IMG/VR virus record: IMGVR_UViG_3300032782_000001
Coordinates: 244,404-308,403 of that record
Reading direction: 5' to 3' (one strand)
DNA length: 64,000 nt
Origin: a virus
The notes under the pieces are model-generated. The model was not told the origin of the DNA and searched no databases. It saw only the letters and a program-made list of their open reading frames with translations. Positions 12,405 to 49,655 of the stretch are shown in pieces (the first letter of the stretch is position 1; each line of letters starts with the position of its first letter). A program made the position numbers and the translations under genes.

Positions 12405-12830
12405 TTGGAATTGATGGAAATCCAGAGGCACTGCAGTTATTGTGGGAAAACCGGCCACGACCGTCGATCCCATTTTAGTGCCATGTCAATGAGAAAGAAC
12501 CAGCCGCGACATTGCAGCCAATGCGGGCACGTTGGTCATGATAGAAGAACCTGCAGTCACACGAGACTTCATCTCTCCGTCAGAAAGTGCTTAGGGGAGA
12601 GACTCGTAGACGGAGAGATCTATCAAGTATTGGAGTGTGGGCACGCTGTCCCGGCCACGTTGGACGCGGACGGAATGTGGGTTCAGGAATGGCGTCAATG
12701 TTACCAGTGTAAAGAAGGAAAGCCGGCTTGCAAACCTCTTTACGAAGGAGAGCCAACCTATGATTTCCGACGCAAATCTTGGAAACAATTCCAATTCAAT
12801 CGTCAGAAATTGACGACAGAATTACAATAG
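12405..12830 (+). CDS. CCHC zinc-knuckle protein (141 aa)
   Basis: Two CxxCGxxGHDRRxC knuckles (CSYCGKTGHDRRSH, CSQCGHVGHDRRTC) plus further Cys/His pairs. Confidence 0.5.
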   Translation: MELMEIQRHCSYCGKTGHDRRSHFSAMSMRKNQPRHCSQCGHVGHDRRTCSHTRLHLSVRKCLGERLVDGEIYQVLECGHAVPATLDADGMWVQEWRQCYQCKEGKPACKPLYEGEPTYDFRRKSWKQFQFNRQKLTTELQ

Positions 12831-13183
12831 TATATTCTGTGGATATTCATCAACTCAAAGCCATCGCAAAACGCGGCGGGATCGTTAAATGGATCGCTTC
12901 GGGCATGTACGAAAAGCTCGGAATGCTAGGAAAGCGAGTCACGGCTCAAGGGCCTAATTCCCCAATCCATTTCTTGTCTGGCGATCGAACCAAATTCCAT
13001 TGTGTTGAAGTGAATCCGAAATCCACGGTCCCCGCGGGAGAATTGTTATTTCCTCGAGGCCCCGTTCCCTACGGATTGATCGTGAGTTCACATTACAAGT
13101 ATAAAGAAACTGTGCGCTTCAAAGCTGAAGCCCGTGAACGTAAGAAGAACATGAAGATCGTAGCTGAAGTCATGGAATCCTGA
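12779..13183 (+). CDS. Small protein with C-terminal VMES tag (family member)
   Basis: Ends ...KIVAEVMES-stop (gtc atg gaa tcc tga), identical to the cluster at 21.7-27.5 kb. The true start may be downstream of the overlap with 12405-12830. Confidence 0.4.
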   Translation: METIPIQSSEIDDRITIVYSVDIHQLKAIAKRGGIVKWIASGMYEKLGMLGKRVTAQGPNSPIHFLSGDRTKFHCVEVNPKSTVPAGELLFPRGPVPYGLIVSSHYKYKETVRFKAEARERKKNMKIVAEVMES

Positions 13184-16696: not shown

Positions 16697-18202
16697 TTAG
16701 CCCAACGCCTTTACTTCCATATCCCCATCTACCCGGACATGGTGCTTCTTGGCCCTTTGACCGATAGCAAAATTGGAAACGACTTGCTGGGCCGCCGCAG
16801 TCAGATCATCTGAAGTGAAGGTGACAGCGCCACCAGAAGTACCTCTTTCAGCCACCGCTCGGATAACGGTAGACTTAGCAAGTTCCTTCACATATGCGCC
16901 CGTAAGCCCTTCGCATAGTTCGATCACGGTGCTGATCGTATCTTTCGTAACCGAAGCATCGGGAACAGCATGAAGCTTCTTGAGGAAGGAATGAAGCATA
17001 AGAGCACGGTCGATGGAATCCGGGTAGGGAATTTCAATTTTGACATCAAACCTACCTGGCCGATTAACAAGAGCCTCGTCCATTGAGGCGATGTCATTGG
17101 TTGAAGCCATTACTACAACCCCAGCATTCTCTTGAGCCCCATCCAGACATGCCAAAAACTCATTGAGAACGCGACTTTCATAACCGCTCAGACCACTCCT
17201 GTTCCCTCCGAACAGGTCCATGTCTTCAATAAACACAATGCAAGGGGCCAAAGTCCTGGCGGCCTGGAACAGTGAAGTTACGTGTTCAGGATAATCAATT
17301 GACTTTCCCGTGCACCAAATTCGAGTAGCTTGACTTTCAGTTTCATGCGAGATAGCACGAAACAATGTCGTTTTCGCCATTCCGGGCGGAGAAATAAGGA
17401 TAGCATTCCGATTCGGGCACATGCCGACGGAAGCCAATTCCTCCATATGTTTGAGCACTTCTACGGTGTTGTCACGAATAGCGCATTTGACATGATCCTT
17501 GAGAACAATATCGTCCCAAGACGTCGAAGTCACTGCCATGAAGTCTAGATGACCACGTTCAAAGCAAAGACATTTCTTGAAATAAATATCATTAGCTCGA
17601 ATAGACGCATCTAGATCGTGGAAGAACTTTTCAGCTGCTGCTTGTTGAGTAGGGTGAGCAAGAACCGTTAGACTACAATATGGCATCTCGTAACAGAAAT
17701 CTGCCCGGACAACTAAGTGCGTATCGTCGACTTCGTTTCTGACAAAGAAAATACCGTAGACGGGCAGCGTCTCCGTCCGACCAAGGTCCACAGAAAGTTG
17801 TTCATACTGAATGCGGTATGAACTACGCCCTTTGAGGGCTTCTTTGAATTCATACTGGTCGAGGAAAGGTACGATTTCGTATTCGGCACCGTTCACGCCG
17901 TAATTTTTGAACAGACGAGTGAAAGCCCAGGCATTCAAATTCCTAGCAAATGCTGGATAAGTTCGATTGAGATTAATGGCAAGATGAATCTCACATCCTA
18001 GCCAAAGTTCTTTAATGTGGGAATCCGGGTCGGACGGGTACCAACGCTCCACTCGGCGAGCCAGAGCAGCCCGTTCGTCCACCTTCGAAAAATAGGAGTC
18101 CAGAATATAATTGGCGGCTCCGGCAAAAGCATCCGTAATTCCGTAAGGAATACTCACGAGGCTTGGAAGGTAGCCTGCAGTCTTGCGCACGGGTCGGCCC
18201 AT
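16697..18202 (-). CDS. AAA+ family ATPase (501 aa)
   Basis: Walker A-like ILISPPGMAKTTL, Walker B IVFIEDMDLF, sensor-like region (SIDRALMLHSFLKKL) downstream of the ATPase core. Confidence 0.65.
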   Translation of the reverse strand: MGRPVRKTAGYLPSLVSIPYGITDAFAGAANYILDSYFSKVDERAALARRVERWYPSDPDSHIKELWLGCEIHLAINLNRTYPAFARNLNAWAFTRLFKNYGVNGAEYEIVPFLDQYEFKEALKGRSSYRIQYEQLSVDLGRTETLPVYGIFFVRNEVDDTHLVVRADFCYEMPYCSLTVLAHPTQQAAAEKFFHDLDASIRANDIYFKKCLCFERGHLDFMAVTSTSWDDIVLKDHVKCAIRDNTVEVLKHMEELASVGMCPNRNAILISPPGMAKTTLFRAISHETESQATRIWCTGKSIDYPEHVTSLFQAARTLAPCIVFIEDMDLFGGNRSGLSGYESRVLNEFLACLDGAQENAGVVVMASTNDIASMDEALVNRPGRFDVKIEIPYPDSIDRALMLHSFLKKLHAVPDASVTKDTISTVIELCEGLTGAYVKELAKSTVIRAVAERGTSGGAVTFTSDDLTAAAQQVVSNFAIGQRAKKHHVRVDGDMEVKALG

Positions 18203-18668: not shown

Positions 18669-20282
18669 ATGACGATCACTGTCGGCGTGACGCAAACGGC
18701 GTCCGACCTATCCAACGTCATCCAGGCGGTTGTCGTCTTAGGGTCAGATAGCGAGCTTCCCAATCCGCTCGCATCTTTCCTCAGTCCGGACACTTATTTG
18801 TCCGTACTCACTTCATTGTCTATCCAACCCGGGACGTATGACATCGGTCAAATTACCGTTACGTCAGTTAGTTCCCCCATATTTGCACAATTCGCTTACA
18901 GCCTCACTGTCAGGTTCGTCAAAAAAGGAACCGCAGTCACTTCTGCACAGTTCGTGGGGCCGGCAGGACCGGTAGGTCCCCAAGGACCAGCCGGAGAAGA
19001 CGGAGCTCCCGGAGGCCCACCAGGGCCTCAAGGACCAATGGGTCCGGCTGGCCCACAGGGGCCAACTGGAGCACGAGGGCCAACTGGACCGAACGGATCT
19101 CCGGGAGCTCAAGGTCCCATTGGTCCAGCCGGACCATCCGGAGCTAGAGGCGCCACCGGACCGCAGGGAATCCAAGGAGTCACAGGTCCATTCGGTGGAC
19201 CTCAAGGTTCTCAAGGTTCTCCAGGAATTACTGGTTCTCAAGGAGAACCAGGGGTAACCGGAGCGACTGGGCCCCAAGGAACTACAGGTCCTCAAGGTCC
19301 TATCGGGTCCCCAGGGAATCCCGGTAGTCAAGGATCTCCTGGAGTCACAGGGTCTACGGGACCGGCTGGTGCGACTGGAGCACAAGGAGCTACTGGTCTA
19401 CAAGGAGCAACTGGAGCACAAGGAATAACTGGGGCGACTGGACCACAAGGATCAACTGGAGCACAAGGAGCTACCGGTCTACAAGGAGCACAAGGAGCTA
19501 CCGGTCCAACTGGAGCACAAGGAGCTACCGGTCTACAAGGAGCAACTGGAGCACAAGGAATAACTGGGAAAACTGGTGCAACTGGTCCCCAAGGTAGCCC
19601 GGGAGTAACTGGTGCAACGGGGGCTGTTGGACCTCAAGGTGTTACTGGTGCAATTGGACCTCAAGGTTCTCAAGGAAGTCCTGGTGCAACGGGGGCTGCG
19701 GGGGCAACGGGTGCGGTTGGACCTACTGGGTCGCAGGGTATTCAGGGCTCACCTGGGGTCACTGGAGTAACTGGACCTGCGGGAGCTCCTCAAGGGTCAC
19801 CTGGCGTCACTGGACCGCAGGGTCCTACAGGACCACAAGGTGCGACTGGGCCGGCTGGCGGCGGTAGTGCAGTTACAGGAGCGACGGGTCCTCAAGGCGC
19901 AACAGGACCTGCGGGCGCCATGGGCGTCACTGGTCCAATGCGACGGTTCGTTTACCCGACTCCGTCGTTCCCTGTTACAGCTAGCTATATGGCAAGGCCA
20001 TTCGAGAGGGTGTTGTACGCCCCTACGGGGTCAGCATTCACTATTTTTGCTCCGTCGGGGCCTGTGCAAGGCGATCAATTTGCCGTTAAACAAATCACCA
20101 ACAGTCAAACTGCTACCATGACCTTCAACGGCAACAATAATAAAATTGAAGACCCATTTGGTGTAGGACTCCCAGGAGTTACGTCATCCATTATGTCAAT
20201 AGGAGGATACTCCGAAACTTCCATGGTGTGGGAATATGACGGAGTCAACACTTGGTATTTGTTGTTCTTTTGGAGCAACTAG
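18669..20282 (+). CDS. Collagen-like protein with non-collagenous N- and C-terminal domains (537 aa)
   Basis: About 330 aa of uninterrupted G-X-Y triplets ([38 protein letters not shown]...) flanked by a ~95-aa N-domain and a ~110-aa C-domain. Confidence 0.8.
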
Positions 20283-20348
20283 CGTGATCCCAATCCGACT
20301 TTTACGCGAGCGGAAATTCCGTTCCAAGAAAGTGACAGGTTTTGTACT

Positions 20349-20368
20349 GAGTGGGCATCAGCCCACTC
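20349..20368. terminator. Hairpin (8-bp stem gagtgggc/gcccactc, 4-nt loop) 65 nt after the collagen-like gene stop
   Basis: Read directly. No clear U-run. Confidence 0.25.
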
Positions 20369-20494
20369 TCCAATCCTAGTCAAGAATCGGGAAAGCTCAT
20401 CGGGACGGACGGGGGCCATAAATTCTACGCCCTCCGATGAATCAGAAACTTCGTCCAAAATTTTCCCGAGGTCATTTGCTTCCATAGATATGAA

Positions 20495-21430
20495 ATGTTA
20501 CCAAAAGAGGGTCATTGTATTGTGCGCACCATGAATGTTGCTTTTGATATGGAGACTTCAGATCCAGATGACGTCTTCACACTTTGCTTCTTAGCAGGCC
20601 ATCCGGCCGTAAAACTTCGTGCGGTCACAATAACACCAGGTTCCAAACAACAAATAGGACTGGTGAAACATGTTTTAAAAAGGCTCGGATTAGATATCCC
20701 TATCGGAGCCAGGAAACCGGATCACCCCAAATCTTGTGTTTCGGAATTCCATCACAAGTGGTTCGGAAAGATTGAAGAAGCCGTACCCGATGGATTGGGA
20801 TGGGAAATTCTGTCTTCCGCTTGTATGTCGAGCTTCCCTCTAGCAATTGTTACAGGAGGCCCACTTGGGAATCTCGGGGACATGATCGCTAACGGTCGAA
20901 TTCATGAGTTGAGGGGGCTCATCATTCAGGGCGGATTCGCAGGGGATAACGTGACGAAGCCCGAGCATAGGCTGCCAAAGTTTGCTGGACGAGAAACAGC
21001 ACCAACTTTCAATCTAAACGGGGACGTGAAATCTGCCTGGGCAGTGTTAGCATACCCGAAAGTAGCTAGTCGCAGGCTAGTATCAAAAAACGTATGTCAC
21101 GGGGTCATATATGACCAGCCAATGCATGAACGAATGAAGCCCTTCCGTCACGTAAGTGCCGGGATCGGGATGATGATTGAAGGGATGGAAATATACCTCA
21201 AGAATAAGCCCGAAGGGAAAATCTTCCATGACCCGCTGGCGGCTTGCGTGGCCATCGAACCAGAAGTCTGCGAATTCCGCGAGGTAGCAATCTACAGGAT
21301 CAAAGGGGAGTGGGGATCCAAGTTGGAGTCCGGAACCAAAACGTGGATTTCCACTGCCGTGAACCGAGAGCTTTTCGAACAAGTATTGTCTGGTCAACGA
21401 GGCGGCGGGCGAACTGAGTCACTTCCCTGA
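20495..21430 (+). CDS. Inosine-uridine-preferring nucleoside hydrolase family protein (311 aa)
   Basis: N-terminal FDMETSDPDDVFTLCFLAGHP matches the DxDxxxDD calcium/ribose-binding fingerprint. The following VTITPGSKQQIGLVKHVLKRLGLDIPIGA matches the conserved second block of IUNH enzymes. Confidence 0.6.
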   Translation: MLPKEGHCIVRTMNVAFDMETSDPDDVFTLCFLAGHPAVKLRAVTITPGSKQQIGLVKHVLKRLGLDIPIGARKPDHPKSCVSEFHHKWFGKIEEAVPDGLGWEILSSACMSSFPLAIVTGGPLGNLGDMIANGRIHELRGLIIQGGFAGDNVTKPEHRLPKFAGRETAPTFNLNGDVKSAWAVLAYPKVASRRLVSKNVCHGVIYDQPMHERMKPFRHVSAGIGMMIEGMEIYLKNKPEGKIFHDPLAACVAIEPEVCEFREVAIYRIKGEWGSKLESGTKTWISTAVNRELFEQVLSGQRGGGRTESLP

Positions 21431-21708
21431 TCTGCAGACTCTTGTTCTACGAACCGAAGAAACACACGTCTGGCTGCGTGCTTACCGTAGCCAATCCTCT
21501 CCATGAAGGTCTCGAATTTGCTCTCACCCTCATGGAAAGCTGATGAAGTAAAAGTGATCCCGCAAGGACCAGTAGCAGAAATAACTTCAAGTCGATCCGG
21601 ATAAACTGGGTCTACTCGAATTTCCATTCCAAGAGGATGTAGAATCCTCCTATTAATCTCAAACAGGATTCCATCCGCTTCTAAAGTCTGAGGCAAGATC
21701 TCCTTCAC
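21394..21708 (-). CDS. Hypothetical protein (104 aa)
   Basis: ORF track. Divergent from the 21781 gene across the palindrome. Confidence 0.35.
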   Translation of the reverse strand: MKEILPQTLEADGILFEINRRILHPLGMEIRVDPVYPDRLEVISATGPCGITFTSSAFHEGESKFETFMERIGYGKHAARRVFLRFVEQESADQGSDSVRPPPR

Positions 21709-21743
21709 GAGGTCTCCGTTCCATCAACTTTCCAGTTATTAGT

Positions 21744-21779
21744 CTCGCAAAATACGCTCGATCGAGCGTATTTTGCGAG
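21744..21779. promoter_or_regulatory. Perfect 36-bp palindrome ctcgcaaaatacgctcgatcgagcgtattttgcgag ending 1 nt before ATG 21781
   Basis: Read directly; both arms are exactly complementary. Lies in a divergent intergenic region. Candidate operator or hairpin. Confidence 0.5.
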
Positions 21780-21780
21780 C

Positions 21781-22122
21781 ATGGGAGACGTCATCTATGC
21801 CTCCGACGAACATTCTCTCTACGGAGAATTATATCGAATTCTCAATGAGCTGGCTTTGGAAACCGACCTCATGGAAAAGGGTATCATCGTCGGATTCCAT
21901 AGGATCGACAATTCTAACTGCAAATATGTATGTCAAATTCAAGACTGGGAGGGGGATGACAGTCCGATCGAATTTGAAAGGAGAATTGAGAAACTGGTAG
22001 AAGGTAATATTCTCATGATTCGACTCCAAGGACGGGGAGCCGATTGCAGATTTTACGTGATTGCGGAAACCATAGAAGAAGCTTTAGGGAAAATTACCGT
22101 GTTCCAGATCATGGAATCATGA
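21781..22122 (+). CDS. Small protein with C-terminal IMES tag (113 aa)
   Basis: Ends ...VFQIMES-stop. Its stop overlaps the stop of the convergent IMES gene inside a palindrome. Confidence 0.5.
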   Translation: MGDVIYASDEHSLYGELYRILNELALETDLMEKGIIVGFHRIDNSNCKYVCQIQDWEGDDSPIEFERRIEKLVEGNILMIRLQGRGADCRFYVIAETIEEALGKITVFQIMES

Positions 22123-22134
22123 TTCCATGATCTG
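22105..22134. repeat. Perfect 30-bp palindrome cagatcatggaatcatgattccatgatctg formed by two convergent genes that both end QIMES-stop
   Basis: Read directly. Each arm encodes I-M-E-S-stop for the gene on its strand; the stops overlap. Confidence 0.6.
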
Positions 22135-22350
22135 ACGAACAATATGCACATCACAAGAATCGTCTTTCTCGGGCTGACTATTGAAAGACATCATACCGCA
22201 TCGGTCGCATTTCTGTGCAACCATGGCAGGGTCGTATGACCAAGTCATATTAACGTGGACCTCTACAGATTCTTTGTTAGGCTTTTCAGCTCGTACACAC
22301 AGAAATGATTGGTCCTCGCCGTCTACGACATCGCGCCATTTATGATCCAT
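22117..22350 (-). CDS. Zinc-ribbon protein with C-terminal IMES tag (77 aa)
   Basis: CDRCGMM...DSCDVHIVRQIMES-stop. Confidence 0.5.
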   Translation of the reverse strand: MDHKWRDVVDGEDQSFLCVRAEKPNKESVEVHVNMTWSYDPAMVAQKCDRCGMMSFNSQPEKDDSCDVHIVRQIMES

Positions 22351-22365
22351 ATCGGAAGCGTACGC

Positions 22366-22881
22366 TCAATACGAACCGAATGACTCGTGAACTTCAGGCA
22401 TGAGTTCACGGACTTTTTCTTCAGTTCGATGAATATCACACAAATCCCAATGGAAACTGTGATTGACAGAAGCAAATTTCTGCGTCCAGTTTCCACAGAC
22501 GACGCATTGGCGTTGAGTACCAGAATGCATGCCGTCAAGACGCATATGATTGTCAAGTAAATACGAACGGTAGCAAGCTTGAGCTTCTTGCTCTGTCGCA
22601 TGTCCGTCATCGTGGTACTTAGACTGATTGGATTGAATACGTTGCCATTCAGCATCACTCATATGACACTCGGCACGTTTCTCGGGAGTCCAATCGGTTT
22701 TATGACAATACCCGACGGGATAAGTACCGGTCCGTTTGTTCTGACAAGTGTAATCCCAACGTTTATCCAGAGTCCTTTGCCTGGCTGCGTAATAGTTCAC
22801 CGGATACCTCCAGTTAGCAGCGGCAATCAACTTTCCATGACTTCCCAGGCTTTCATGGTCGGGGTCATGACGACCTCCCAC
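22366..22881 (-). CDS. Cys/His-rich hypothetical protein (171 aa)
   Basis: Multiple C/H clusters (CHKTDW...ECHMSD...CVVCGNW...HSFHWDLCDIH). Probably binds metal. Confidence 0.4.
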   Translation of the reverse strand: MGGRHDPDHESLGSHGKLIAAANWRYPVNYYAARQRTLDKRWDYTCQNKRTGTYPVGYCHKTDWTPEKRAECHMSDAEWQRIQSNQSKYHDDGHATEQEAQACYRSYLLDNHMRLDGMHSGTQRQCVVCGNWTQKFASVNHSFHWDLCDIHRTEEKVRELMPEVHESFGSY

Positions 22882-23153
22882 AAGCCTTGTTCATTAGACG
22901 CTATTACGAGATCTTCCCATAAAATACTACAGAAATTTTCTCGGAGTTCAAAAATGGCGTTGGGACAAATCTTGTGATTATCGGCATATCTCGTCAGCGA
23001 ATTAACGAACTCAACAAATACCTTTTCGTTATCAGGATTCCCTACCGGGTATAAGCGCCTCGCGCGCTCCATACATGCGCCCAAGATCCGTGCTTTTTCC
23101 CAGCTGCGGAGTTCTTCGTCTGTTGGTTCAGAAGAATAATGTGTCGCAGTCAT
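22827..23153 (-). CDS. Small protein with C-terminal VMES tag (108 aa)
   Basis: Ends ...KAWEVMES-stop (gtc atg gaa agt tga). Confidence 0.5.
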   Translation of the reverse strand: MTATHYSSEPTDEELRSWEKARILGACMERARRLYPVGNPDNEKVFVEFVNSLTRYADNHKICPNAIFELRENFCSILWEDLVIASNEQGLWEVVMTPTMKAWEVMES

Positions 23154-23554
23154 TCCATCTTCAAGGCCTTACACTGGAAAGAATTGTAATGTTTGGAGTG
23201 GAGCGCCTCATATTGGAACCCACATTGCTCATGCATTGGATTCGGGAAGCTGAATGGAATGAACGCACGAAAAGAGTGAAAGCTGTGGAATTGGGCATAG
23301 GAAGTTATGTAGAATTCCGACGATGTCGACCTACAGGATTCGATTCAATAACTGATATAAAATCTCTTGCAACCGGACGCATGGGGACAGTTTGGGGTGT
23401 GGAAATTATCGCATCCAGATTTAACGCGGAAAACGTGATTGTGTTCGTTTTTGAGGACGATTCTCGAGAAATCCGTGGAAAATGCATGCAAAAGGAAGAT
23501 CACATGTGCGGACACGAAAATTGTCGAGTCGTCCGTGAAGTCATGGAGAGCTGA
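23075..23554 (+). CDS. Small protein with C-terminal VMES tag (159 aa; start may be internal ATG 23189)
   Basis: Ends ...GHENCRVVREVMES-stop (gtc atg gag agc tga). Its 5' end overlaps the divergent VMES gene, so a later start is likely. Confidence 0.45.
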   Translation: MRPRSVLFPSCGVLRLLVQKNNVSQSFHLQGLTLERIVMFGVERLILEPTLLMHWIREAEWNERTKRVKAVELGIGSYVEFRRCRPTGFDSITDIKSLATGRMGTVWGVEIIASRFNAENVIVFVFEDDSREIRGKCMQKEDHMCGHENCRVVREVMES

Positions 23555-23591
23555 TTCCGAAAATCTCGCGAGATTCTAGGTATTCCATCAT

Positions 23592-24023
23592 ATGAACTTT
23601 CCGGAAACCACCATGCAGTCCCAAGCTGATGTGGAAAATATTCTGGCGAAGGTTGCCTTCCGGCCCAGTTGTGTGAACCTCGACTGGAAATGGGAATTGA
23701 AGCCCGTTTATTCGGCTCCTCCCGAATCCGATATTTCAGGATGGCTCATCCGGACCTCATTCGTCAGACCTGACACGGATAGCGGAGAAATCCAGCGAGG
23801 ATTTGGAAGGTGGGAATATGTGGAAAAAGGAACTTCAATCAGCGGAGTTGTGAAAACTTGCTGGCTCCTCGCCGAACTCATCGTACGGCATGAACTCATG
23901 GAAGCTTTCACCTACGAAGGATCGAAGATCTTTGATCCTCATCACGCTGTAGGTATTTTGAAGTCAGCTCAGACCGTTCAGATCATCATGAATCAAAAAG
24001 AGCAAGCAAGCCCAAGCCCATAA
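23592..24023 (+). CDS. Hypothetical protein (143 aa)
   Basis: ORF track. Confidence 0.4.
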   Translation: MNFPETTMQSQADVENILAKVAFRPSCVNLDWKWELKPVYSAPPESDISGWLIRTSFVRPDTDSGEIQRGFGRWEYVEKGTSISGVVKTCWLLAELIVRHELMEAFTYEGSKIFDPHHAVGILKSAQTVQIIMNQKEQASPSP

Positions 24024-24025
24024 AG

Positions 24026-24421
24026 TTAGCTAGACATAACTTCAGTAACACAACATTCTTCATCAGAATGATGATTTCCAGCAACCATCGTTCCGCATTT
24101 CCAACAGAACATCTCGAGGATGAACACGGCAACGGTCCGACGCCCGGAAGTGTCTGCCATATGTTTGGAAATCAATTTCCGCACGTTCTCAGGAAAGAAA
24201 TTATCTCTCGTGCGACTGAAATTCCCGAGGGAAATAGTCCAATGACGATTTTCCACTGGATCAATCATCGTCCCGTCTTTATCGTATCCAACTGACGTCC
24301 AACCCAAAAGAGGTGGGAAAACCCCGGGAATGTCAGCACAAATGACAGAATCTCCTGTGCGCCTGACATGCTCGTGCATATCTTCAAAAAGTTCGCGCAC
24401 AGTTTGGAAGAGAACTTGCAT
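24026..24421 (-). CDS. Zinc-ribbon protein with VMSS C-terminus (tag variant, 131 aa)
   Basis: CWKCGTMVAGNHHSDEECCVTEVMSS-stop. Confidence 0.45.
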   Translation of the reverse strand: MQVLFQTVRELFEDMHEHVRRTGDSVICADIPGVFPPLLGWTSVGYDKDGTMIDPVENRHWTISLGNFSRTRDNFFPENVRKLISKHMADTSGRRTVAVFILEMFCWKCGTMVAGNHHSDEECCVTEVMSS

Positions 24422-24436
24422 TGTAGAGTTGTCTCT

Positions 24437-24904
24437 ATGCCCGTAGAACCTAACCCGTACGATACACCTGAATTGATTGAACTCCGGAAGGGTCAGGGAG
24501 ACCCTCTCATTCTATATCTGATTGTCCGGGAATCACTCGGAATGGGCGTGGGGAAAATTGCGGCCCAATGCGCTCATGCTACTCAAATGGTGATGTTGCG
24601 ACACCTTGAGTTGGAAAGAGACGCATGGGAAAATCAAATGTCACCAGCTCATTCACCGAGTCATGAAGCTGCCCAAAAACTTCGCAGTGTCGTAGAAGAA
24701 TGGCTCCGAACATCCTTCCGAAAAGTCGTCCTAAAGGCTGACGATAAAGAATGGGCAAAAATCAAAGAAACGGTAAACGTCTTCGTCGTTAAGGATGCCG
24801 GGTTGACCGAAGTGGAAGCTGGTTCAGAAACCGTGATGGCGCTCTGGCCAATGCGGAAGAGCGAAGCTCCGAAAATTATCCAAAGACTTCAGGTCCTGAA
24901 ATAG
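24437..24904 (+). CDS. pth2: Peptidyl-tRNA hydrolase, PTH2 family
   Basis: LILYLIVRESLGMGVGKIAAQCAHA and VFVVKDAGLTEVEAGSETVMALWP correspond to the two signature blocks of archaeal/eukaryotic PTH2. Start set at the internal ATG 24437 so the gene does not overlap gene 24026-24421. Confidence 0.6.
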   Translation: MPVEPNPYDTPELIELRKGQGDPLILYLIVRESLGMGVGKIAAQCAHATQMVMLRHLELERDAWENQMSPAHSPSHEAAQKLRSVVEEWLRTSFRKVVLKADDKEWAKIKETVNVFVVKDAGLTEVEAGSETVMALWPMRKSEAPKIIQRLQVLK

Positions 24905-25162
24905 TCAGGATTCCATGACATCACGAACGATGCAATGAGGGCAACCACTCTCTGCCCCATCGTCTGTCATCTTTTTACAAATCGGGCAGGGAGGATCAGG
25001 CCAATCCACAAGCATGGACCGCCGAGGCTGACTAATGTAATCGATAGTCTGCCGGATGGGGTCCGTATTCGGAACGACCAATTTCTTGATAATAGGGAAC
25101 GAAAACTTCTTGAATTCAGGAACGTCAACCATTTCAAGACCCCATGATTTGGGCGACGACAC
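24905..25162 (-). CDS. Zinc-ribbon protein with C-terminal VMES tag (85 aa)
   Basis: CPICKKMTDDGAESGCPHCIVRDVMES-stop. Confidence 0.5.
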   Translation of the reverse strand: MSSPKSWGLEMVDVPEFKKFSFPIIKKLVVPNTDPIRQTIDYISQPRRSMLVDWPDPPCPICKKMTDDGAESGCPHCIVRDVMES

Positions 25163-25299
25163 ATTCTTCTTCTGTATGCACTAATCCACGCTCGACTAAG
25201 AGCCTGCACTTCTCGCAAGAAATCAAAACGACGAATTTCTTCGGGCCTTTCATGTTGACCCGAATCACCTGTGTGATTTCAAATTCAGGACATCGCATG

Positions 25300-25701
25300 T
25301 CAAGACTCCATGACTTGAATCACAACACAAGCTTCTTCGGAATGAAGATGCTCACGACCTTCCAAAATGGTCCTTCCACAATCTAAACATGAATAAATAC
25401 GCATCATGCCTTCTTCCGGCATCAAATCAGACAGTGTCATTTTCTTGAGAGGAGTCGTTTCTAATTCCTGACGGATGGGCATCCTTCCAATAAACTCTGG
25501 CTCGGATTCCCGATAAACCGCCCCCGTAAATTTCAAATTAACCACGTCAGGATTCCATGATGGAGCGAACGGTGCATTCAAGACAACCGAGTTCGGCTCC
25601 GTTATCGGAGTCAAGTAATCCGCAGATCCGACAAGGGACATCTGGAAGTTGACTGACTGGCGAACGCCGTCGGACTTCACCTGCGACCCAGAGACGGTCA
25701 T
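25300..25701 (-). CDS. Zinc-ribbon protein with C-terminal VMES tag (likely shorter, from an internal Met)
   Basis: CLDCGRTILEGREHLHSEEACVVIQVMES-stop. The track ORF overlaps the upstream IMES gene by 155 nt. Starting at MPIRQ... would remove the overlap. Confidence 0.45.
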   Translation of the reverse strand: MTVSGSQVKSDGVRQSVNFQMSLVGSADYLTPITEPNSVVLNAPFAPSWNPDVVNLKFTGAVYRESEPEFIGRMPIRQELETTPLKKMTLSDLMPEEGMMRIYSCLDCGRTILEGREHLHSEEACVVIQVMES

Positions 25702-25798
25702 TGATGTCGGACATAATGCTTCGTCCGAGTTTTGCTCGCTTCTCAGGATCTAGAAGACACTGTTTGACGAATTTGATCTTATCGTCTTCGTGAGACAC
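25547..25798 (-). CDS. Zinc-ribbon protein with C-terminal IMES tag (83 aa)
   Basis: CRICGLLDSDNGAELGCLECTVRSIMES-stop. Confidence 0.5.
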   Translation of the reverse strand: MSHEDDKIKFVKQCLLDPEKRAKLGRSIMSDINDRLWVAGEVRRRSPVSQLPDVPCRICGLLDSDNGAELGCLECTVRSIMES

Positions 25799-26209
25799 TC
25801 ACAACATTACACGCAAAATCCGAAGGGCGCGTGTTACATCATCATCAGATAGGCCTAGGGAGTTATCTACACGGATGAACTCCGGTCCAAAGCCTCCCAA
25901 ATCCCTATCGTCGAGGATCAAGAATTGATCCGGGTGATTCTCTTGTACCCAAGCAAGAATACCCTGGACACGGTCTTCCGCAACGTCCAAAGCCTCGAGA
26001 CGAGGTCCAGTATATCCAGAAGCCCTGAAGATAATTTCAAGCTCGTCCGGTTCAAACCGAATCCGCCAAAGAGAAGTCACGACCACACGAACATGTGGAA
26101 TCGCGGCGAGCTCATTGAGACGAGCTACTAAATGCCGTTCCAAAATTCCTGGTCGAAAAGCTCCACCGAGGTTTAGAACGCCGTCGATGTCCAGGAAGAT
26201 GACTTGCAC
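25799..26209 (-). CDS. HAD-superfamily phosphatase-like protein (136 aa)
   Basis: N-terminal VIFLDIDGVLN is the HAD motif I DxDG(T/V) nucleophile block. Confidence 0.45.
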   Translation of the reverse strand: MQVIFLDIDGVLNLGGAFRPGILERHLVARLNELAAIPHVRVVVTSLWRIRFEPDELEIIFRASGYTGPRLEALDVAEDRVQGILAWVQENHPDQFLILDDRDLGGFGPEFIRVDNSLGLSDDDVTRALRILRVML

Positions 26210-26212
26210 GAA

Positions 26213-26779
26213 CTAAGATACGACGACAGAATCGAGATCTACAAGCTTCAAGATCCCATCCGAAGTCCGCATAACGTTGCCAGGATTCACATCCACGTGA
26301 ACAGTTCCGCTTTCTTCCAGTCTATCGTACAATTCCAAAGCATCGTCGAGAAAGTGGGATCCCATGTATTGCTTGATGGGCTTCCCAGAAATTTTGGCTC
26401 GAACGATAGCAGCAACTTCTTCCGCGTTGTCTGCCGGCTCGAGCTTCTCCATTACGTAGTAGTACGCCCAGCCTTGGGATCGACCAACACCTGGATTGTC
26501 GATCTCGCACAGAACGTCTGCTTCGTAGATTCTCGGATAAACTGTAGCGTCTTTCCCCATCAAACGTTTGATTTCCGCTACACGGTCTCGGGCGTCCTCC
26601 TCGTCAATCGCTACTTGGATCTTCAGAACACGGTCGCCCAAATCATAGACTTCACCCTGCCTTCCTGAACCAAGAAGTTTCCCGAGATCAGGAAAGGACA
26701 CATCACAGGTGTCTTGAACAGCGTCCATCATGCCGCCGGCAAAGATGGTGAGGGCAGTACGATAGAGCTTCATGATCAA
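26213..26779 (-). CDS. Minimal eukaryotic-like protein kinase (188 aa)
   Basis: Gly loop LGSGRQGEVY, VLKI (VAIK Lys), catalytic-loop-like HVDVNPGNVM (HRDLKPxNI) and LVDLDS (DFG-like) in the right order and spacing for a truncated ePK fold. Confidence 0.5.
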   Translation of the reverse strand: MIMKLYRTALTIFAGGMMDAVQDTCDVSFPDLGKLLGSGRQGEVYDLGDRVLKIQVAIDEEDARDRVAEIKRLMGKDATVYPRIYEADVLCEIDNPGVGRSQGWAYYYVMEKLEPADNAEEVAAIVRAKISGKPIKQYMGSHFLDDALELYDRLEESGTVHVDVNPGNVMRTSDGILKLVDLDSVVVS

Positions 26780-34804: not shown

Positions 34805-35137
34805 TCACGAACCGCGACGACTACGACGGGACTTCTTGGGCTCCATTCCCACGTCAGTCGAGCTGGATGACTCGCCAGACTCCATAGACGGAGCATCATC
34901 AGACGATGAATCATCAAGAGGAGCATCTCCTTCAGAAGGAGGATCCTCTACTTGAGGCTCTCCGTCAGGGACAACGGGCAAATCTTCCGGATCTGCATAC
35001 AACACCACATCCAATGAGTGCTGCGCGTTGTGGAGAACAACATCCTCCTCGGTCAGGACGATGTGAGGAACTTCGACTCCCTTATAGTTCGGCATTTGGC
35101 ACCTACCGATCGGTGAATCGGAAAAAAGGTCGCTCAC
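34805..35137 (-). CDS. Acidic hypothetical protein (110 aa)
   Basis: ORF track. Asp/Glu/Ser-rich C-terminus. Confidence 0.35.
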   Translation of the reverse strand: MSDLFSDSPIGRCQMPNYKGVEVPHIVLTEEDVVLHNAQHSLDVVLYADPEDLPVVPDGEPQVEDPPSEGDAPLDDSSSDDAPSMESGESSSSTDVGMEPKKSRRSRRGS

Positions 35138-36183
35138 TCTTCAGACTGACTCAGTAGCAAAAGTCCAGTCGCGACGGCCGTCATAGGGTCTTTAGCGGCC
35201 CTGATTTCTGAAATTTGGATGGGAAACTTAGCACGATGAATTTCAAACCGTTCTTTGAACTTATCAAGAAATCCGGAAGCCAAAGAAGTTCCTCCACTGA
35301 CTACGAGAGGTACAGGCTTCGGGACCAGAAGCTCTTGACGAGCTTTTGAAAATTGTTGGATGATGGTATCAATGGAATAGTCAATGAGCGCTTGAATAAA
35401 TAACGCAATGGCTTCACCTTCAAGAGAACTCGATTTTTTACTAATGTCAATCCCACTTTCTTTAATGGAACAAATTTTGGCGGCTGTCGTACTGACAGCT
35501 TTGGCAGCTCCGGAGTCTACCCAATCTCCTCCGCGTCCTACGGAAAATTCCAGAGCGCTCATAGCATTGTAACTAAGACAAACGTTAGTCATGCCGGAGC
35601 CATACGAAATGCCGAGACCTGAAAAATTCTCTTTGGAACATTCCGAGAACACGATGGCCTGAGCCTCATTGGCAGGTTCAGCAGTAAATCCAAGTTCTGT
35701 CAAAATCTTCTTGAGAATAGCAGAGTGGTAAGTAACATCTGAACCTTGCACGTCAACAGCTGGAGCTGGCACTGAATAGACACATTTTTCACCGGACTTA
35801 CGAGGAGCACCCAAAATTCTCTTGATCATCAGAGCGATGACTTTTTGCGCATCCACCTCACCGGGGGTGATCACACCACCAGACATTGGACGACGAGCTT
35901 CTCGATTAAATAAATTCGCCGTCTCTAAGGCTTCATCCCCAATGATCAAAAGTTTCCCATCAAGCTCGACATGACTCGTGCCTGACAGTTTCAACATTCG
36001 CATATTTCGGTTATCAAGAGGTAAATCGATGAAGGCATCCCTGATTCTAGTAGTTTTGACAGTCTTCCCATTTTGACGGGCAGACACAAAGTTCATAGTA
36101 CCGGCATCAAGTGACGCTCCTGCGACAGCGGTATCATCGATGTCGTCAAGGTCAACACTAAACTTGGTCTCATTCTTCGCCAT
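35134..36183 (-). CDS. Actin-like ATPase (ParM/MreB/Alp superfamily, 349 aa)
   Basis: Phosphate-1 SLDAGTMNF, phosphate-2 GLGISYGSGMTNVCL, adenosine motif LVVSGGTSLASGF, in the canonical order. Confidence 0.5.
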   Translation of the reverse strand: MAKNETKFSVDLDDIDDTAVAGASLDAGTMNFVSARQNGKTVKTTRIRDAFIDLPLDNRNMRMLKLSGTSHVELDGKLLIIGDEALETANLFNREARRPMSGGVITPGEVDAQKVIALMIKRILGAPRKSGEKCVYSVPAPAVDVQGSDVTYHSAILKKILTELGFTAEPANEAQAIVFSECSKENFSGLGISYGSGMTNVCLSYNAMSALEFSVGRGGDWVDSGAAKAVSTTAAKICSIKESGIDISKKSSSLEGEAIALFIQALIDYSIDTIIQQFSKARQELLVPKPVPLVVSGGTSLASGFLDKFKERFEIHRAKFPIQISEIRAAKDPMTAVATGLLLLSQSEE

Positions 36184-37391: not shown

Positions 37392-37607
37392 TCAGCTCCC
37401 CATAACTTCATAGATGATTTCTTCTTCAGGAGATAACCACTGAAGACGTATATTCCAAAAAGGAACTGCCGGACGATTACCGCGTTTTCGTTTTTCTTTC
37501 CAACTGACGGGTACGCATTCTTGGACGACCCAAATCTGATCCCCTTGGATTCGAAAAACAGTCCCCGGTTCATGGTATCGGGTCGCGTCTCTCTGAACCA
37601 TGATCAT
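37392..37607 (-). CDS. Small protein ending EVMGS (possible divergent VMES-family member)
   Basis: Track ORF 37392-37709 overlaps the upstream gene. The internal MIM start at 37605-37607 lies just after the TAA at 37612. C-terminus is IIYEVMGS-stop. Confidence 0.35.
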   Translation of the reverse strand: MIMVQRDATRYHEPGTVFRIQGDQIWVVQECVPVSWKEKRKRGNRPAVPFWNIRLQWLSPEEEIIYEVMGS

Positions 37608-37611
37608 GAAA

Positions 37612-38943
37612 TTAGGAACGTCTGTTTGCATTTTCGTAGGACACTGTAGTGCCTCGGATTTCACGTTCATCCGGAATCGAAGCAGCTTCAGTAACCATCG
37701 GAGTAGCATTACCCTTGCCTGGAATTGTATATCGCGTCTGAGGGGCTACCAGTACAGAAGTATCAAGAACTGGAACTTGATATCGAATATCTGACTCATC
37801 AAACTTGGACACATTGAAGAACTGTGCGAGTTGCATGCCACGGTTACTGGGCATCCGAACTGGTCCAACAGCATATCTGTCGCCGTTGAGTTTTACAATG
37901 AAATCTCGCTGAGAAATAAGAGGGCTCGGTAAAGCCCAAACTTCATATGAATGTTCAACCGTACGACCACGAGCACTTTGAGCAATAGACTTAGCGGCAT
38001 CATCTGGAGAGATATCGATGTCATACGGACCATCATACCCACCGATTATTCCTGTGCCATAACAAACAAGACAATCTGCACTAGGTTGTCGGTGCAGACT
38101 GGAATAACATCCACACTTTGGTCCTGCGGCCCGGCGGATCATTAATTTGACTCTCTCGCCGCCTTGTTCCAACATCCAACGTTGGCGGCGAATAGCTTCA
38201 CGCCAAATGTAATCGAGCTTCTCAATTTCAAAATTATTCGCTATGGCGGCATCTTCTAAACGTGTTTCGAGAAGCTGGCCACTATCCGCATCATAAGCTA
38301 CGGTTGTGATACGATAGAAAATGCGTTGAGCAAGAGTAGTAGGAACTTGATTTGACAAGTACCTGTACGTAGCCAAAACGATGGAGTTAGGGTCTTTTGG
38401 TAAAACAGCATTCGTTTGAATTTGACTAGCTACATCAAACGTAGGCTCGCGACGAAGTTCCACTTCCCCTCTAGTCGCGTTTATGGATTCAACAAACGCA
38501 GGAACCCCATCAACGGTTACTTGAACATTCAAATTTGTAATATTGGCAGATCCGGGAGAAGGATATATGACGATCGGATTATATCGAGTCCGAAACTCGT
38601 AACGTCCGTCTCCGTCTGAGCTAGGTCCACGAAAGAAAAAATTTTTAGAAACATCTTCCTGGAGAGCTAGGACAGTCCTCGTACTATCACGCCAATAAGC
38701 TGCGCCTACGGGGACAGTATTAAGACGCTCATATGGGCCGTACTCGGAGTCAAAACTCCTGTAAATATTGACCCCTAAAAGATCGAATCGAGAATTCGCT
38801 TGTAATTCTCCCGGCAGGGTCCAGCGAATGTCGAACGTCTCTTTTAGAAAACCTGAAGATACGAATATATTCAGTGGGGGTAGAGGTAAAGCAGGTGAAT
38901 CCTGCTCCAGAATCCCAATTTTCCTGTCCGGCGGGAAAGGCAT
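37612..38943 (-). CDS. Structural protein carrying the repeated beta-sandwich domain (443 aa)
   Basis: RYEFRTRYNPIVIYPSPGSANITNLNVQVTVDGVPAFVESINATRGEVEL parallels the repeats of the 1557-aa protein. Confidence 0.5.
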   Translation of the reverse strand: MPFPPDRKIGILEQDSPALPLPPLNIFVSSGFLKETFDIRWTLPGELQANSRFDLLGVNIYRSFDSEYGPYERLNTVPVGAAYWRDSTRTVLALQEDVSKNFFFRGPSSDGDGRYEFRTRYNPIVIYPSPGSANITNLNVQVTVDGVPAFVESINATRGEVELRREPTFDVASQIQTNAVLPKDPNSIVLATYRYLSNQVPTTLAQRIFYRITTVAYDADSGQLLETRLEDAAIANNFEIEKLDYIWREAIRRQRWMLEQGGERVKLMIRRAAGPKCGCYSSLHRQPSADCLVCYGTGIIGGYDGPYDIDISPDDAAKSIAQSARGRTVEHSYEVWALPSPLISQRDFIVKLNGDRYAVGPVRMPSNRGMQLAQFFNVSKFDESDIRYQVPVLDTSVLVAPQTRYTIPGKGNATPMVTEAASIPDEREIRGTTVSYENANRRS

Positions 38944-43689: not shown

Positions 43690-43931
43690 AATTCCACGAA
43701 TGGAAAGACACTGGGATCAGAGCCACCGATTTGCGCTCCTTCGGACGGTCGAAAAAGAAAATGTCCCGGTACGAGTGCACGAAATGTGGACTCGTGATGA
43801 ACATTTCAGATGTCGATATTCAAATCGAAAAGAAAAACCCCGGGCATATCCACACCGTCGCTAAGGAAACAGTTCAGTCTGATTTCCAAGACTGTGATCT
43901 CACAATCGTGGCTATGGTGATGAAGACTTAG
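43686..43931 (+). CDS. Small zinc-ribbon protein (81 aa)
   Basis: CTKCG...H.H. ATGA overlap with the ligase-like gene. Confidence 0.35.
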   Translation: MKFHEWKDTGIRATDLRSFGRSKKKMSRYECTKCGLVMNISDVDIQIEKKNPGHIHTVAKETVQSDFQDCDLTIVAMVMKT

Positions 43932-45421
43932 CCGTCGTCTTTCGCCAAAAGAGGCTTCAGCCCGGCTGCCTTTCGGAATTCATCTTCCACCCATTGACGA
44001 GCTGAAACTATATCTTCAGATGAAAGGCGCTCATGTGACACCCAAGAACGATATTCACCTGGGGTACCTTTGTATAGAACAACATCTTTGGAAAAATCCA
44101 ATGATGCCTTGTCGAATTGAATGTTATGCTTTTCAGGGGATTCGAAAATAGGAGTACCTTCATACGGAGTCGTAATCGAAACATCCGCGTCATCAAGGCC
44201 CTCTTGAGCCATGAGGACAAGCCAATTTCTGAGTGCAGAAATAGTTTCAGGAGTCTCACCGGGAAGACCAACTTGAGTGAAGACTTTAGGGCGGATCCTG
44301 TACTTCACACAGAGACGGACAAACGCCGTGTTATCCTCAACTGTTGCACCTTTCCGAATATCGCGGAGAATCTTCGGATCCGCGGCTTCTGCGCCAGTAC
44401 ACATTTGAACGCATCCGGCTTCCGCCATAGACTTGAAGATAGAATCAGTTGTTAAGTTCTTCCCATTCTTGAAGAAAGCCCTCCAGAGAATTCCTTCTTC
44501 CTTTAACATTGGAAGGAATTTGCTCATGAAATCTGGCCTCAAGTTGATTTCATCATCGTAAAACATGAAAGCCCGCCATCCGTACATCTCACGGACATGA
44601 CGGATCTCTTCACGGACTTTCTCTGAAGATTTCGCTTCGAGTTTCCGATACCCATCCCAGTGTGAACAATAGGTGCACGCAAAAGGACAGCCGGTAGCGC
44701 TTACAATAGAAGTAGCCCGTTCTCCACCCACGAGATAATTGTAACTTTTGAGGTCAATAAGATCTCGAGCCGGGAGAGGCCATCTGTCATTCTGATAGAC
44801 GACACCGTCATGCATTAAGTGTGAAGCTTCTTCCTTGGAAAGACGGCTGGGTAGTTTAATGATGCGTTCATTCTGTTCCCAACCAATTTCGCAATTATCC
44901 TTGAGTATGCGCAACTGGTTGGTCTTTCTACTAAGCTCTGGTTTATTAGCGAGTCGCTCAGTAGAACGAGATATTCTGTTCAACAATTCGATGAAGCCAG
45001 GCTCCCCACCACCACCACCTTGATCCGAGACTACGACGTAGTCAAACGCGTCGTCGAGACACCTGGACGGTGCAGTGTTGGCATGAGGACCTCCAATAGC
45101 AGTGATGCATTTAGGATTATGGGTCCGAATGAAAGCATTCAGTTTTACAACTTGAGGATGTTGCGCAGCAAGAGAATAGAACCCAACGAGATCCGCGTCT
45201 TGAGCCATTTCCCAAAGGTATTTTTCAGCTTCATCCATGACAGCGTCATAAGACGCGTGAACAATCTCAGGATGTCGTTGCTTATACCCAGTCAGGTCAG
45301 CTACTCGGATTTCATGACCGAGTTGCCTCGCCACTGCCCCGATTTGGAGTGGACCTAAGAAGGGAAAGGCCCTGTCATCAAGGAGAAAGGGGGAGGGAGG
45401 AATAACAAGACAAATCCGCAT
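43928..45421 (-). CDS. B12-binding-domain radical SAM enzyme (class B, 497 aa)
   Basis: N-terminal Rossmann-like B12-binding region followed by ATGCPFACTYCSHW (CxxxCxxC). Confidence 0.65.
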   Translation of the reverse strand: MRICLVIPPSPFLLDDRAFPFLGPLQIGAVARQLGHEIRVADLTGYKQRHPEIVHASYDAVMDEAEKYLWEMAQDADLVGFYSLAAQHPQVVKLNAFIRTHNPKCITAIGGPHANTAPSRCLDDAFDYVVVSDQGGGGGEPGFIELLNRISRSTERLANKPELSRKTNQLRILKDNCEIGWEQNERIIKLPSRLSKEEASHLMHDGVVYQNDRWPLPARDLIDLKSYNYLVGGERATSIVSATGCPFACTYCSHWDGYRKLEAKSSEKVREEIRHVREMYGWRAFMFYDDEINLRPDFMSKFLPMLKEEGILWRAFFKNGKNLTTDSIFKSMAEAGCVQMCTGAEAADPKILRDIRKGATVEDNTAFVRLCVKYRIRPKVFTQVGLPGETPETISALRNWLVLMAQEGLDDADVSITTPYEGTPIFESPEKHNIQFDKASLDFSKDVVLYKGTPGEYRSWVSHERLSSEDIVSARQWVEDEFRKAAGLKPLLAKDDG

Positions 45422-45436
45422 TTGTCTTCCATCGAA

Positions 45437-46564
45437 TCATGAACGACCTAAGGAAGACATACGACGATTCAAAATGCCTTCCAGGCGTTTGCAATTGGAT
45501 TCCCAAGTATATTTCAAAGCCCTTTTCCTGGATTTACGAACTATTTCCTGACGGTATCCTTCTTCTCGTAAGAGCCGAATTACTTCATCCGTAAACGTGT
45601 CAAGATTATTTTTAATATCAGGAATCGTTATCGCGGCACCCCCGTAAAGCTGACCAAGCGCATCTACATTACTCGTAACGACAGCGGCCCCCGCGTAACA
45701 GGCTTCCAATATCGTATTAGAGAATCCTTCAGTCCAACGAACAGGATCACAGGGGTACGCCAAAACTTGGGCTTCGCTCATTTCACGAGCGATCCTCTTG
45801 CGACTCACAGATTTGAAGTGTTCAATACCGTGTCCGCGAAGCCTTTCTACTGCTTCGCTGCAGTATAAGGCTCGATGTTTCTGTTCATGTAAAGCGGGTT
45901 CTGCATGGAAAGGGATTGCTTTCATGGCAGCTACCCACGGATCAAAATTATAGAAAATTCTTAGGACAGCGTGAGGGACTTGACGACGAATATGAGGCCA
46001 CTGCTGAAGAAGTAAATGTAACCCACGATCAGGGGATGAAGCGTAAATTACGCGACCCGGAATCTTAGCACATTCATCAAATGCAGACGGGTCCATCCCG
46101 TTATAGAAAGATTCCCATTTATTATCGGGAACGGCCGGTGCGCATGTCTTGAGGTATTCCGTGTGGGTCTCACTGAGACCGCCAACAACATCCACAAATG
46201 ATTCCCAGCCCGGTTTGCAATACCCGAAATCATTAAGTTGTTGATCAACAACCCGGAGGGGTCCCGGAGCTACCCCGTGGATGAAATCAGGATTCATCCA
46301 CGCCATGATCACATCAAATTGATTTTTATCTGAAGATGTGTAGGCATCGAACGGGCGAATCAAAACACCGTTCCATAAAAACCTGTCAGGAGTATTGACT
46401 GTAACTGTGAAAATTGTAACTTCATGACCCAATTTTGCCATACCCTCAGCATAGCAAAAACATGAGACTTCGGAACCCGTGAGACCTCGATCGTCTTCAT
46501 AGAGACGGGTGAAATCGAAAGGTCTTCCAATACAGAATGACCCGAAAACGAAAGCAATTCTCAT
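45437..46564 (-). CDS. GT-B fold glycosyltransferase (375 aa)
   Basis: RVIYASSPDRGLHLLLQQWP and ILEACYAGAAVVTS...ALGQLYGG. Paralog of the next gene. Confidence 0.55.
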   Translation of the reverse strand: MRIAFVFGSFCIGRPFDFTRLYEDDRGLTGSEVSCFCYAEGMAKLGHEVTIFTVTVNTPDRFLWNGVLIRPFDAYTSSDKNQFDVIMAWMNPDFIHGVAPGPLRVVDQQLNDFGYCKPGWESFVDVVGGLSETHTEYLKTCAPAVPDNKWESFYNGMDPSAFDECAKIPGRVIYASSPDRGLHLLLQQWPHIRRQVPHAVLRIFYNFDPWVAAMKAIPFHAEPALHEQKHRALYCSEAVERLRGHGIEHFKSVSRKRIAREMSEAQVLAYPCDPVRWTEGFSNTILEACYAGAAVVTSNVDALGQLYGGAAITIPDIKNNLDTFTDEVIRLLREEGYRQEIVRKSRKRALKYTWESNCKRLEGILNRRMSSLGRS

Positions 46565-48641: not shown

Positions 48642-48649
48642 GCCTAACG

Positions 48650-49654: not shown

Positions 49655-49655
49655 A

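Follow-up and report, generated by a model that had tools for sequence, protein, structure and literature searches.

The convergent gene pair and its palindrome

The window, by which we mean the whole 64,000-nucleotide stretch of viral DNA analyzed here, belongs to a very large phage-like genome (contig of 337-436 kb) whose nearest relatives are IMG/VR contigs of 140-430 kb; 12 kb of it had no megablast match among GenBank phages. Near 22 kb, two of its genes converge. A lone rightward gene (21781-22122, plus strand) encodes a 113-amino-acid protein without a zinc motif that ends in KITVFQIMES, and the last gene of a leftward run (22117-22350, minus strand) encodes a 77-amino-acid protein with a CxxC...C motif that ends in VHIVRQIMES. 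Both belong to a set of genes, hereafter tag genes, whose products end in a short peptide of the form [VI]-M-x-S.

The sequence-only reading had placed a perfect 30-bp palindrome at these convergent ends, and it is indeed present: CAGATCATGGAATCATGATTCCATGATCTG (22105-22134) reads identically on both strands, and each of its arms is exactly 15 nt long. The left arm (22105-22119) consists of the final five sense codons of the plus-strand gene and the right arm (22120-22134) of those of the minus-strand gene, each specifying Q-I-M-E-S. The reading was likewise right that the same terminal codons are used on both strands, as both ORFs end CAG ATC ATG GAA TCA TGA (Q-I-M-E-S-stop), but wrong in describing the stop codons as overlapping; the plus-strand stop lies at 22120-22122 and the minus-strand stop at 22117-22119, and the two are adjacent. 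According to the ORF coordinates and the sequence, what the genes share is the 6-nt self-complementary core TCATGA (22117-22122), which contains both stops and in which each gene's stop is the complement of its partner's final serine codon, TCA.

About 6e-5 perfect palindromes of 30 bp would be expected in 64 kb of random sequence (64000 x 4^-15). Two tag genes arranged tail to tail form a quasi-palindrome by construction, because both strands encode ...[VI]-M-E-S-stop, and their 3' ends can share six bases because Ser-stop, written TCA-TGA, is its own reverse complement. The remaining 12 nt of each arm match because both genes use CAG ATC ATG GAA. Conditional on two tag genes overlapping at TCATGA, such a match of a further 12 nt is found in 2 of the 78 tag-gene pairs of the window (2.6%), the palindrome pair being one of the two. 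The final serine of the tag is written TCA in only two tag genes of the window, those of the palindrome pair, as the TCATGA overlap requires. The glutamine at position -5 is encoded by CAG in both of these genes and by CAA in the other tag genes with glutamine at this position. The identity of the arms includes the -5 codon, which is variable across the tag family, and exceeds what the tag itself requires.

An assembly artefact was considered and excluded, since independently assembled contigs from different samples, one in ENA (337,333 bp) and one in Logan (37,004 bp), are 100% identical to the window across the palindrome.

Orthologs of both genes occur on one related contig, designated L014. 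The counterpart of the 113-amino-acid protein (L014 4017-4370, minus strand) is 40% identical over the C-terminal 52 residues and is the only homolog found for it among 5.8 billion proteins, while that of the 77-amino-acid protein (L014 3738-4010, plus strand) is 33% identical over 76 residues. The 77-amino-acid protein also matches a profile of the zinc ribbon plus tag (E 6e-10), and its cluster is present on a 436-kb JGI contig. The orthologs and the profile match indicate that both overlapping ORFs are real genes. Scans of IMG/VR for close relatives with either gene found nothing, homology searches with the 77-amino-acid protein and the 113-amino-acid profile returned only the query proteins and the L014 ortholog, and a metagenome scan using the 113-amino-acid alignment gave no match.

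A second perfect palindrome, 36 bp long and without a spacer (CTCGCAAAATACGCTCGA|TCGAGCGTATTTTGCGAG; 21744-21779), sits in a 72-bp divergent intergenic region. It ends 1 nt before the ATG of the 113-amino-acid gene, so that this gene has a palindrome at either end; the window contains no other long perfect ones. Its RNA hairpin has a folding energy of -31 kcal/mol (z -5.8). The sequence occurs nowhere else in the window and is missing from the L014 counterpart, and it may represent an operator or a 5'-UTR hairpin. One Logan contig (L002) ends inside it, at window position 21750.

A C-terminal tag on unrelated proteins

Thirteen ORFs of the window end in [VIL]-M-[EGS]-S, and a fourteenth carries the variant SVIES. 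The motif [VI]M[EG]S occurs 13 times in the six-frame ORFs of the window, 11 of them at the exact C-terminus; under the looser pattern, 13 tagged ORFs compare with 1.06 expected by chance. The tag genes are spread over 12779-37745 and clustered at 21.7-27.5 kb. The outlying members are 12779-13183 (plus strand, ending EVMES) and 37392-37709 (minus strand, ending EVMGS). Beyond the convergent pair, the cluster contains a 108-amino-acid product ending EVMES, with a homolog in L014 (22827-23153, minus strand); a 159-amino-acid product ending C..C..C RVVREVMES, which is the profile member P0014 (23075-23554, plus strand); a 131-amino-acid product ending CWKC...HHSDEECCVTEVMSS, with an ortholog in L014 (24026-24421, minus strand); an 85-amino-acid product (75 from a later start) ending CPIC...GCPHCIVRDVMES (24905-25162, minus strand); a 54-amino-acid product ending QIMGS (25134-25298, minus strand); an 81-amino-acid product ending QVMES (25300-25545, minus strand); an 83-amino-acid product ending CRIC...GCLECTVRSIMES, with a homolog in L014 (25547-25798, minus strand); the 71-amino-acid SVIES variant, homologous to tagged proteins of L012, L014, and L015 (26825-27040, minus strand); and a 76-amino-acid product ending QVMES, the profile member P0002 (27260-27490, minus strand).

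The start of 25300-25545 has been re-set and is probably the GTG at 25545, not the ATG at 25701; an N-terminal EPEF[VI]GR[FM]P[IV]R motif in common with metagenomic homologs supports this, and P0007 and P0011 have the motif. The gene at 25547-25798 was missed by public gene calls and begins with a GTG directly after the stop of the HAD_SAK_2 gene (TGAGTG). One of the thirteen ORFs, 21418-21543 (TLMES), was rejected as a tag gene and is probably spurious (41 codons, inside the minus-strand gene 21394-21708). An imperfect palindrome (23554-23583, 82% complementary) lies immediately behind the stop of the plus-strand tag gene 23075-23554 and precedes the next co-directional gene.

Counted over seven loci (the window, L010, L012-L015, and L017), the tag is found on 56 ORFs from phages of 38-66% GC, and when the last eight residues are removed these fall into 34 unrelated BLAST clusters. 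Among the 56, positions -8 and -7 are V, I, or L; position -5 is Q, E, D, or S; position -4 is V (42) or I (14); position -3 is M in 53; position -2 is E in 31, then G and D; and position -1 is S without exception. In the thirteen ORFs of the window the codons vary, with serine written TCC, TCA, AGC, AGT, or TCT and glutamate GAA or GAG, so selection acts on the peptide and not on the DNA. A zinc-binding motif (CxxC...CxxC or CxxC...HxxxxC) directly precedes the tag in eight members, and many of the small tagged proteins across the clade have one.

A profile of the C-terminal domain identified 22 representatives among 1.84 billion proteins, and all of the new ones are tagged at the exact C-terminus. 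The relatives found by profile or pattern carry 2-10 tagged ORFs per contig. They comprise L012 (66% GC; 12.6 kb, ENA ERZ24842409 contig NODE_35710), L013 (62% GC), L014 (56% GC), L015 and L016 (both 39% GC), and L017, together with three sets found by DNA pattern: L010/L018 (427 kb, 38% GC), L020/L022 (56% GC), and L039 (242 kb). L012 encodes eight tagged ORFs and a nucleoside hydrolase. Its binning with a MAG of the Phycisphaerales (UBA1924) hints weakly that the high-GC members may have Planctomycetota as hosts. Related loci of huge phages, found with PTH2 or the nucleoside hydrolase as anchor (L003-L008), have no tags; the tag is accordingly not universal in the wider group. Two family alignments (A3 and A4) gave no confirmed relatives or were too degenerate for pattern scans.

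Searches of the tagged proteins against Pfam, PHROGs, and NCBIfam gave no matches, and the profile matched PDB sequences only at generic CxxC zinc knuckles. AlphaFold models are of low confidence (pLDDT 68 and 54). Our literature searches turned up nothing relevant, either on the tag or on palindromes that arise where convergent stops overlap. The ssrA degron, encapsulin cargo-loading peptides, and PTS1 are short C-terminal recognition peptides. Like them, the tag consists of a few strictly C-terminal residues on otherwise unrelated proteins, but [VI]-M-x-S-COOH matches none of the three. Present on dozens of unrelated small proteins in a clade of huge phages of which few have been sampled (genomes of 240-440 kb, 38-66% GC), and matching no family of the libraries searched, the tag is a more interesting object than the palindrome and merits a study of its own.

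The orthologous junction in a related phage

L014 is syntenic with the window from 18.6 to 25 kb, and its orthologs of the two genes are still convergent, with stops 6 nt apart (TGAatagagTCA). Their tags, KKVMGS and SNIMTS, use codons that differ from those of the window. This junction lacks the perfect palindrome; its stem is interrupted and reaches significance on one strand (z -3.5) but not on the other (z -1.4). The palindrome is therefore dispensable in a relative that retains both genes, the outcome that the sequence-only reading had itself set as refuting its proposal. This nearest relative shares only 33-40% protein identity with the window, and the other copies of the palindrome are 100% identical.

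The same comparison bears on the proposal that the palindrome is a recombination hotspot that shuffles or duplicates tag-bearing cassettes, and does not support it. The genes on both sides of the junction keep their order in L014, so it has not been a breakpoint, and no integrase or recombinase domains were seen in the neighboring ORFs. Elsewhere the DNA identity between tags spans only 6-12 nt, too short for homologous recombination between tags to be plausible.

Palindromes at tag-gene ends in other phages

A DNA pattern whose sole requirement was a pair of [VI]-M-E-S tags with a TCATGA overlap retrieved two further junctions in tag-bearing phages, and both are perfect palindromes. This recurrence at tag-gene ends speaks in favor of the sequence-only reading: TCATGA-centered palindromes of 28-30 bp are found independently in two other lineages, though not in L014. 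The one in L010/L018, ATGTTATGGAGTCATGACTCCATAACAT, is 28 bp long, is formed by NVMES and DVMES, and has no U-tract. The one in L020/L022, GAGATCATGGAATCATGATTCCATGATCTC, is 30 bp long and has the 28-nt core of the window in common; the sole difference is the outermost pair, which is exchanged from C:G to G:C with pairing kept.

The second arm in L020/L022 belongs to a doubtful 35-amino-acid ORF ending EIMES, opposite a 218-amino-acid tag gene. The region of this ORF precedes a tag gene of the same direction and lacks codon periodicity, and L020 and L022 do not differ within it. The flat GC periodicity suggests, without proving, that it is non-coding, and it is here that an explanation by two coding tags is weakest. 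A U4 run lies 3 nt after the stem in L020/L022.

In these other lineages, too, the arms match through the variable codon, which is true of about 2-3% of random tag pairs; in L010, one of 55 tag pairs is that similar, and it is the convergent pair. At L039, by contrast with these perfect cases, a VMNS/IMES pair that overlaps at TCATGA has arms matching at 9 of 12 positions and no hairpin (z -0.6), and a second L010 pair (L010 2712) overlaps at TTAA and has no palindrome (z +0.6). Altogether there are six tail-to-tail tag junctions in five lineages, three of them perfect palindromes and three not. The palindrome is dispensable, yet perfect more often than codon usage predicts. Because the arms match through a variable codon, which is rare in random pairs, a homogenizing process or weak selection for the stem may have been at work. 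Most matches to the DNA patterns, namely L009, L011, L019, L021, L023-L026, and L027-L073 (except L039), were rejected as chance palindromes on unrelated contigs without tags.

The RNA hairpin and transcription termination

On RNA, the palindrome can form a 13-bp hairpin with an energy of -17.7 kcal/mol when taken alone. The suggested check of RNA folding energy confirmed a stable structure on either strand, at -22.8 and -23.7 kcal/mol in a 56-nt context (z about -5.5). The stem has G:C at only 5 of its 13 pairs and falls entirely within coding sequence. In the window, neither strand has a U-tract 3' of the stem: the plus strand continues ACGAACAAUAUGC and the minus strand GAACACGGUAAUUUU, with a U4 run 11 nt away. 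A terminator scan did not call the palindrome site, and Rfam gave no real match.

Tight tail-to-tail packing is the rule in this genome. In the region 18669-25162 the coding strand switches every one or two genes, and convergent ends (20279-20282, 24023/24026, and 24904/24905) overlap by 4 nt or are 0-2 nt apart, too close for an intergenic terminator to fit between them. All other convergent junctions examined in this genome, with gaps of -4, -4, 0, +2, and -4 nt, are equally tight, and none has a significant hairpin (z -2.3 to +2.9, compared with -7.2 at the palindrome). Of the suggestion that the palindrome is a bidirectional terminator or hairpin, the stable hairpin stands, but the absent U-tract, the silent terminator scan, the coding stem, and the hairpin-free junctions elsewhere speak against termination. 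A dedicated terminator or recombination site is unlikely and the palindrome is probably a by-product, given that a related phage keeps both genes without it.

Origin of the palindrome

Convergent overlapping genes in prokaryotes are known to share self-complementary sequences that contain both stops, for example CTAG or TTAA. The junction described here is a variant of this arrangement. As in other tail-to-tail overlapping genes, two real genes lie on opposite strands and the shared bases are read as stop in both directions; here, however, the overlap is 6 nt (Ser-stop), and the symmetry is stretched to 30 bp by the common C-terminal peptide. We lean toward regarding the palindrome as a geometric by-product of the tail-to-tail packing of two genes with a common C-terminal tag. 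The course of events may have been as follows. Two converging tag genes would have collapsed onto each other until they shared the six bases TCATGA. When converging genes both end TCA-TGA, one strand contains TCATGA twice, as a direct repeat, and the spacer may have been lost by deletion between the two copies. The same peptide, Q-I-M-E, written in the same codons upstream on each side, extends the symmetry to 30 bp. Codon bias and chance could have made the arms identical, but template-switch mutation of a quasi-palindrome is the likelier cause. Changes that homogenize the arms would be neutral, because the tag tolerates I or V at -4, E, G, or D at -2, and almost any residue at -5. If the hairpin has any effect on the two mRNAs, this would be incidental and would not explain why the sequence exists.

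Quasi-palindromes are known hotspots of template-switch mutations that extend arm identity (PMC7202029, PMC3820800). In those systems, as we propose here, an imperfect inverted repeat can become perfect, and the arms of our palindrome are more alike than the protein requires; the difference is that the mutational path in our case is inferred, not observed. The junctions of L014 and L039 are quasi-palindromes. If the arms were homogenized by template switching, these junctions would be a natural record of that mutational process inside coding sequence. The locus is also a cautionary case, in which a conserved protein tail on converging genes generates a long perfect palindrome that mimics a terminator or a recombination site.

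It is considerably less likely that the palindrome is a selected RNA element, a hairpin of 13-14 bp at both 3' ends that acts as a bidirectional terminator or 3'-end protector where there is no intergenic space. The stability of the hairpin on both strands would fit, as would the occurrence in three lineages of perfect palindromes whose arms agree even at the variable -5 codon, and the compensated exchange of the outermost pair between the otherwise equal sequences of the window and L022. In L022, moreover, the U4 run lies close behind the stem and the second arm is perhaps non-coding. However, a U-tract is missing in both the window and L010, the stem at the L014 junction is interrupted and significant on one strand only, no hairpin is formed at L039, at the second L010 pair, or at the other convergent junctions of the window, and G:C pairs are few. 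The comparison with bidirectional intrinsic terminators (PMC5381666; 10.1101/2022.10.23.513370) is similarly divided: these also place a symmetric hairpin, foldable on both transcripts, at a convergent junction, but our palindrome is without flanking A- and U-tracts, has a coding stem poor in G:C pairs, and is not conserved at the orthologous junction.

A further alternative, which we consider improbable, is that fold-back or inverted duplication at TCATGA copies the tag to the opposite strand, or that a hotspot shuffles cassettes, and that the tag spread in this way. It would account for a tag on at least 34 unrelated protein clusters, for arms identical beyond the conserved residues in three lineages, and for a minimal 35-amino-acid ORF in L022 that is tagged opposite a 218-amino-acid tag gene. 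Yet both L014 orthologs already carry tags, and different ones, so the tag was not newly donated in the palindrome pair; the conserved synteny, the lack of an adjoining integrase or recombinase, and the shortness of tag DNA identity, all described above, also count against it.

Integron attC sites are imperfect palindromes at the 3' ends of gene cassettes. Our locus resembles them in having palindromic DNA at the 3' boundary of small, variable genes, but its palindrome is perfect, measures only 30 bp, has no extrahelical bases, and lies within coding sequence, in a place with no integrase seen nearby and with gene order across the site conserved in L014. In the boldest form of the fold-back reading, and with a similarly low likelihood, TCATGA would be an active DNA element at which fold-back or template switching lets a converging ORF acquire or refresh a [VI]-M-E-S tag, the resulting hairpin being available for co-option as a 3'-end element. 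If true, a new C-terminal protein signal would have a way of spreading at the DNA level, to dozens of small genes that are unrelated to each other, in a clade of huge phages.

Finally, a role as cruciform target or as the site at which a dimeric protein binds DNA, regulating the 113-amino-acid gene jointly with the 36-bp palindrome at its 5' end, would fit the bracketing of this gene by two palindromes, but is very improbable, as the two have no common sequence, both are missing in L014, and the 30-bp sequence is wholly explained by coding constraints.

Genome context

The genome encodes a collagen-repeat protein, an AAA ATPase, a nucleoside hydrolase, and PTH2, as well as a DNA ligase domain, a block of glycosylation genes, and a 1557-amino-acid protein with a weak match to DUF2460; no tRNAs were found. 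Within the window, collagen-repeat proteins are encoded at 18669-20282 and 57361-59097, and an actin homolog of the Volactin family (Pfam, E 4e-70) at 35134-36183 on the minus strand. A sugar-modification block (43928-54585, minus strand) contains a B12-binding radical SAM enzyme, several glycosyltransferases, two NAD-dependent epimerase/dehydratases, and a 1122-amino-acid protein that fuses GT2, methyltransferase, and GT1 domains.

Inside the tag-gene cluster, a 188-amino-acid kinase-like ORF (26213-26779, minus strand) adjoins the HAD_SAK_2 phosphatase-type gene (25799-26209, minus strand). Its matches are weak (Pkinase, E 0.004; the best in NCBIfam are LanL/LanKC lanthionine synthetase kinase domains and Bud32). 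The position of a kinase-like ORF beside tags with an invariant terminal serine is suggestive; no kinase-like gene was found next to the tag clusters of the other loci. The AAA ATPase (16697-18202) is likewise encoded near tag genes.
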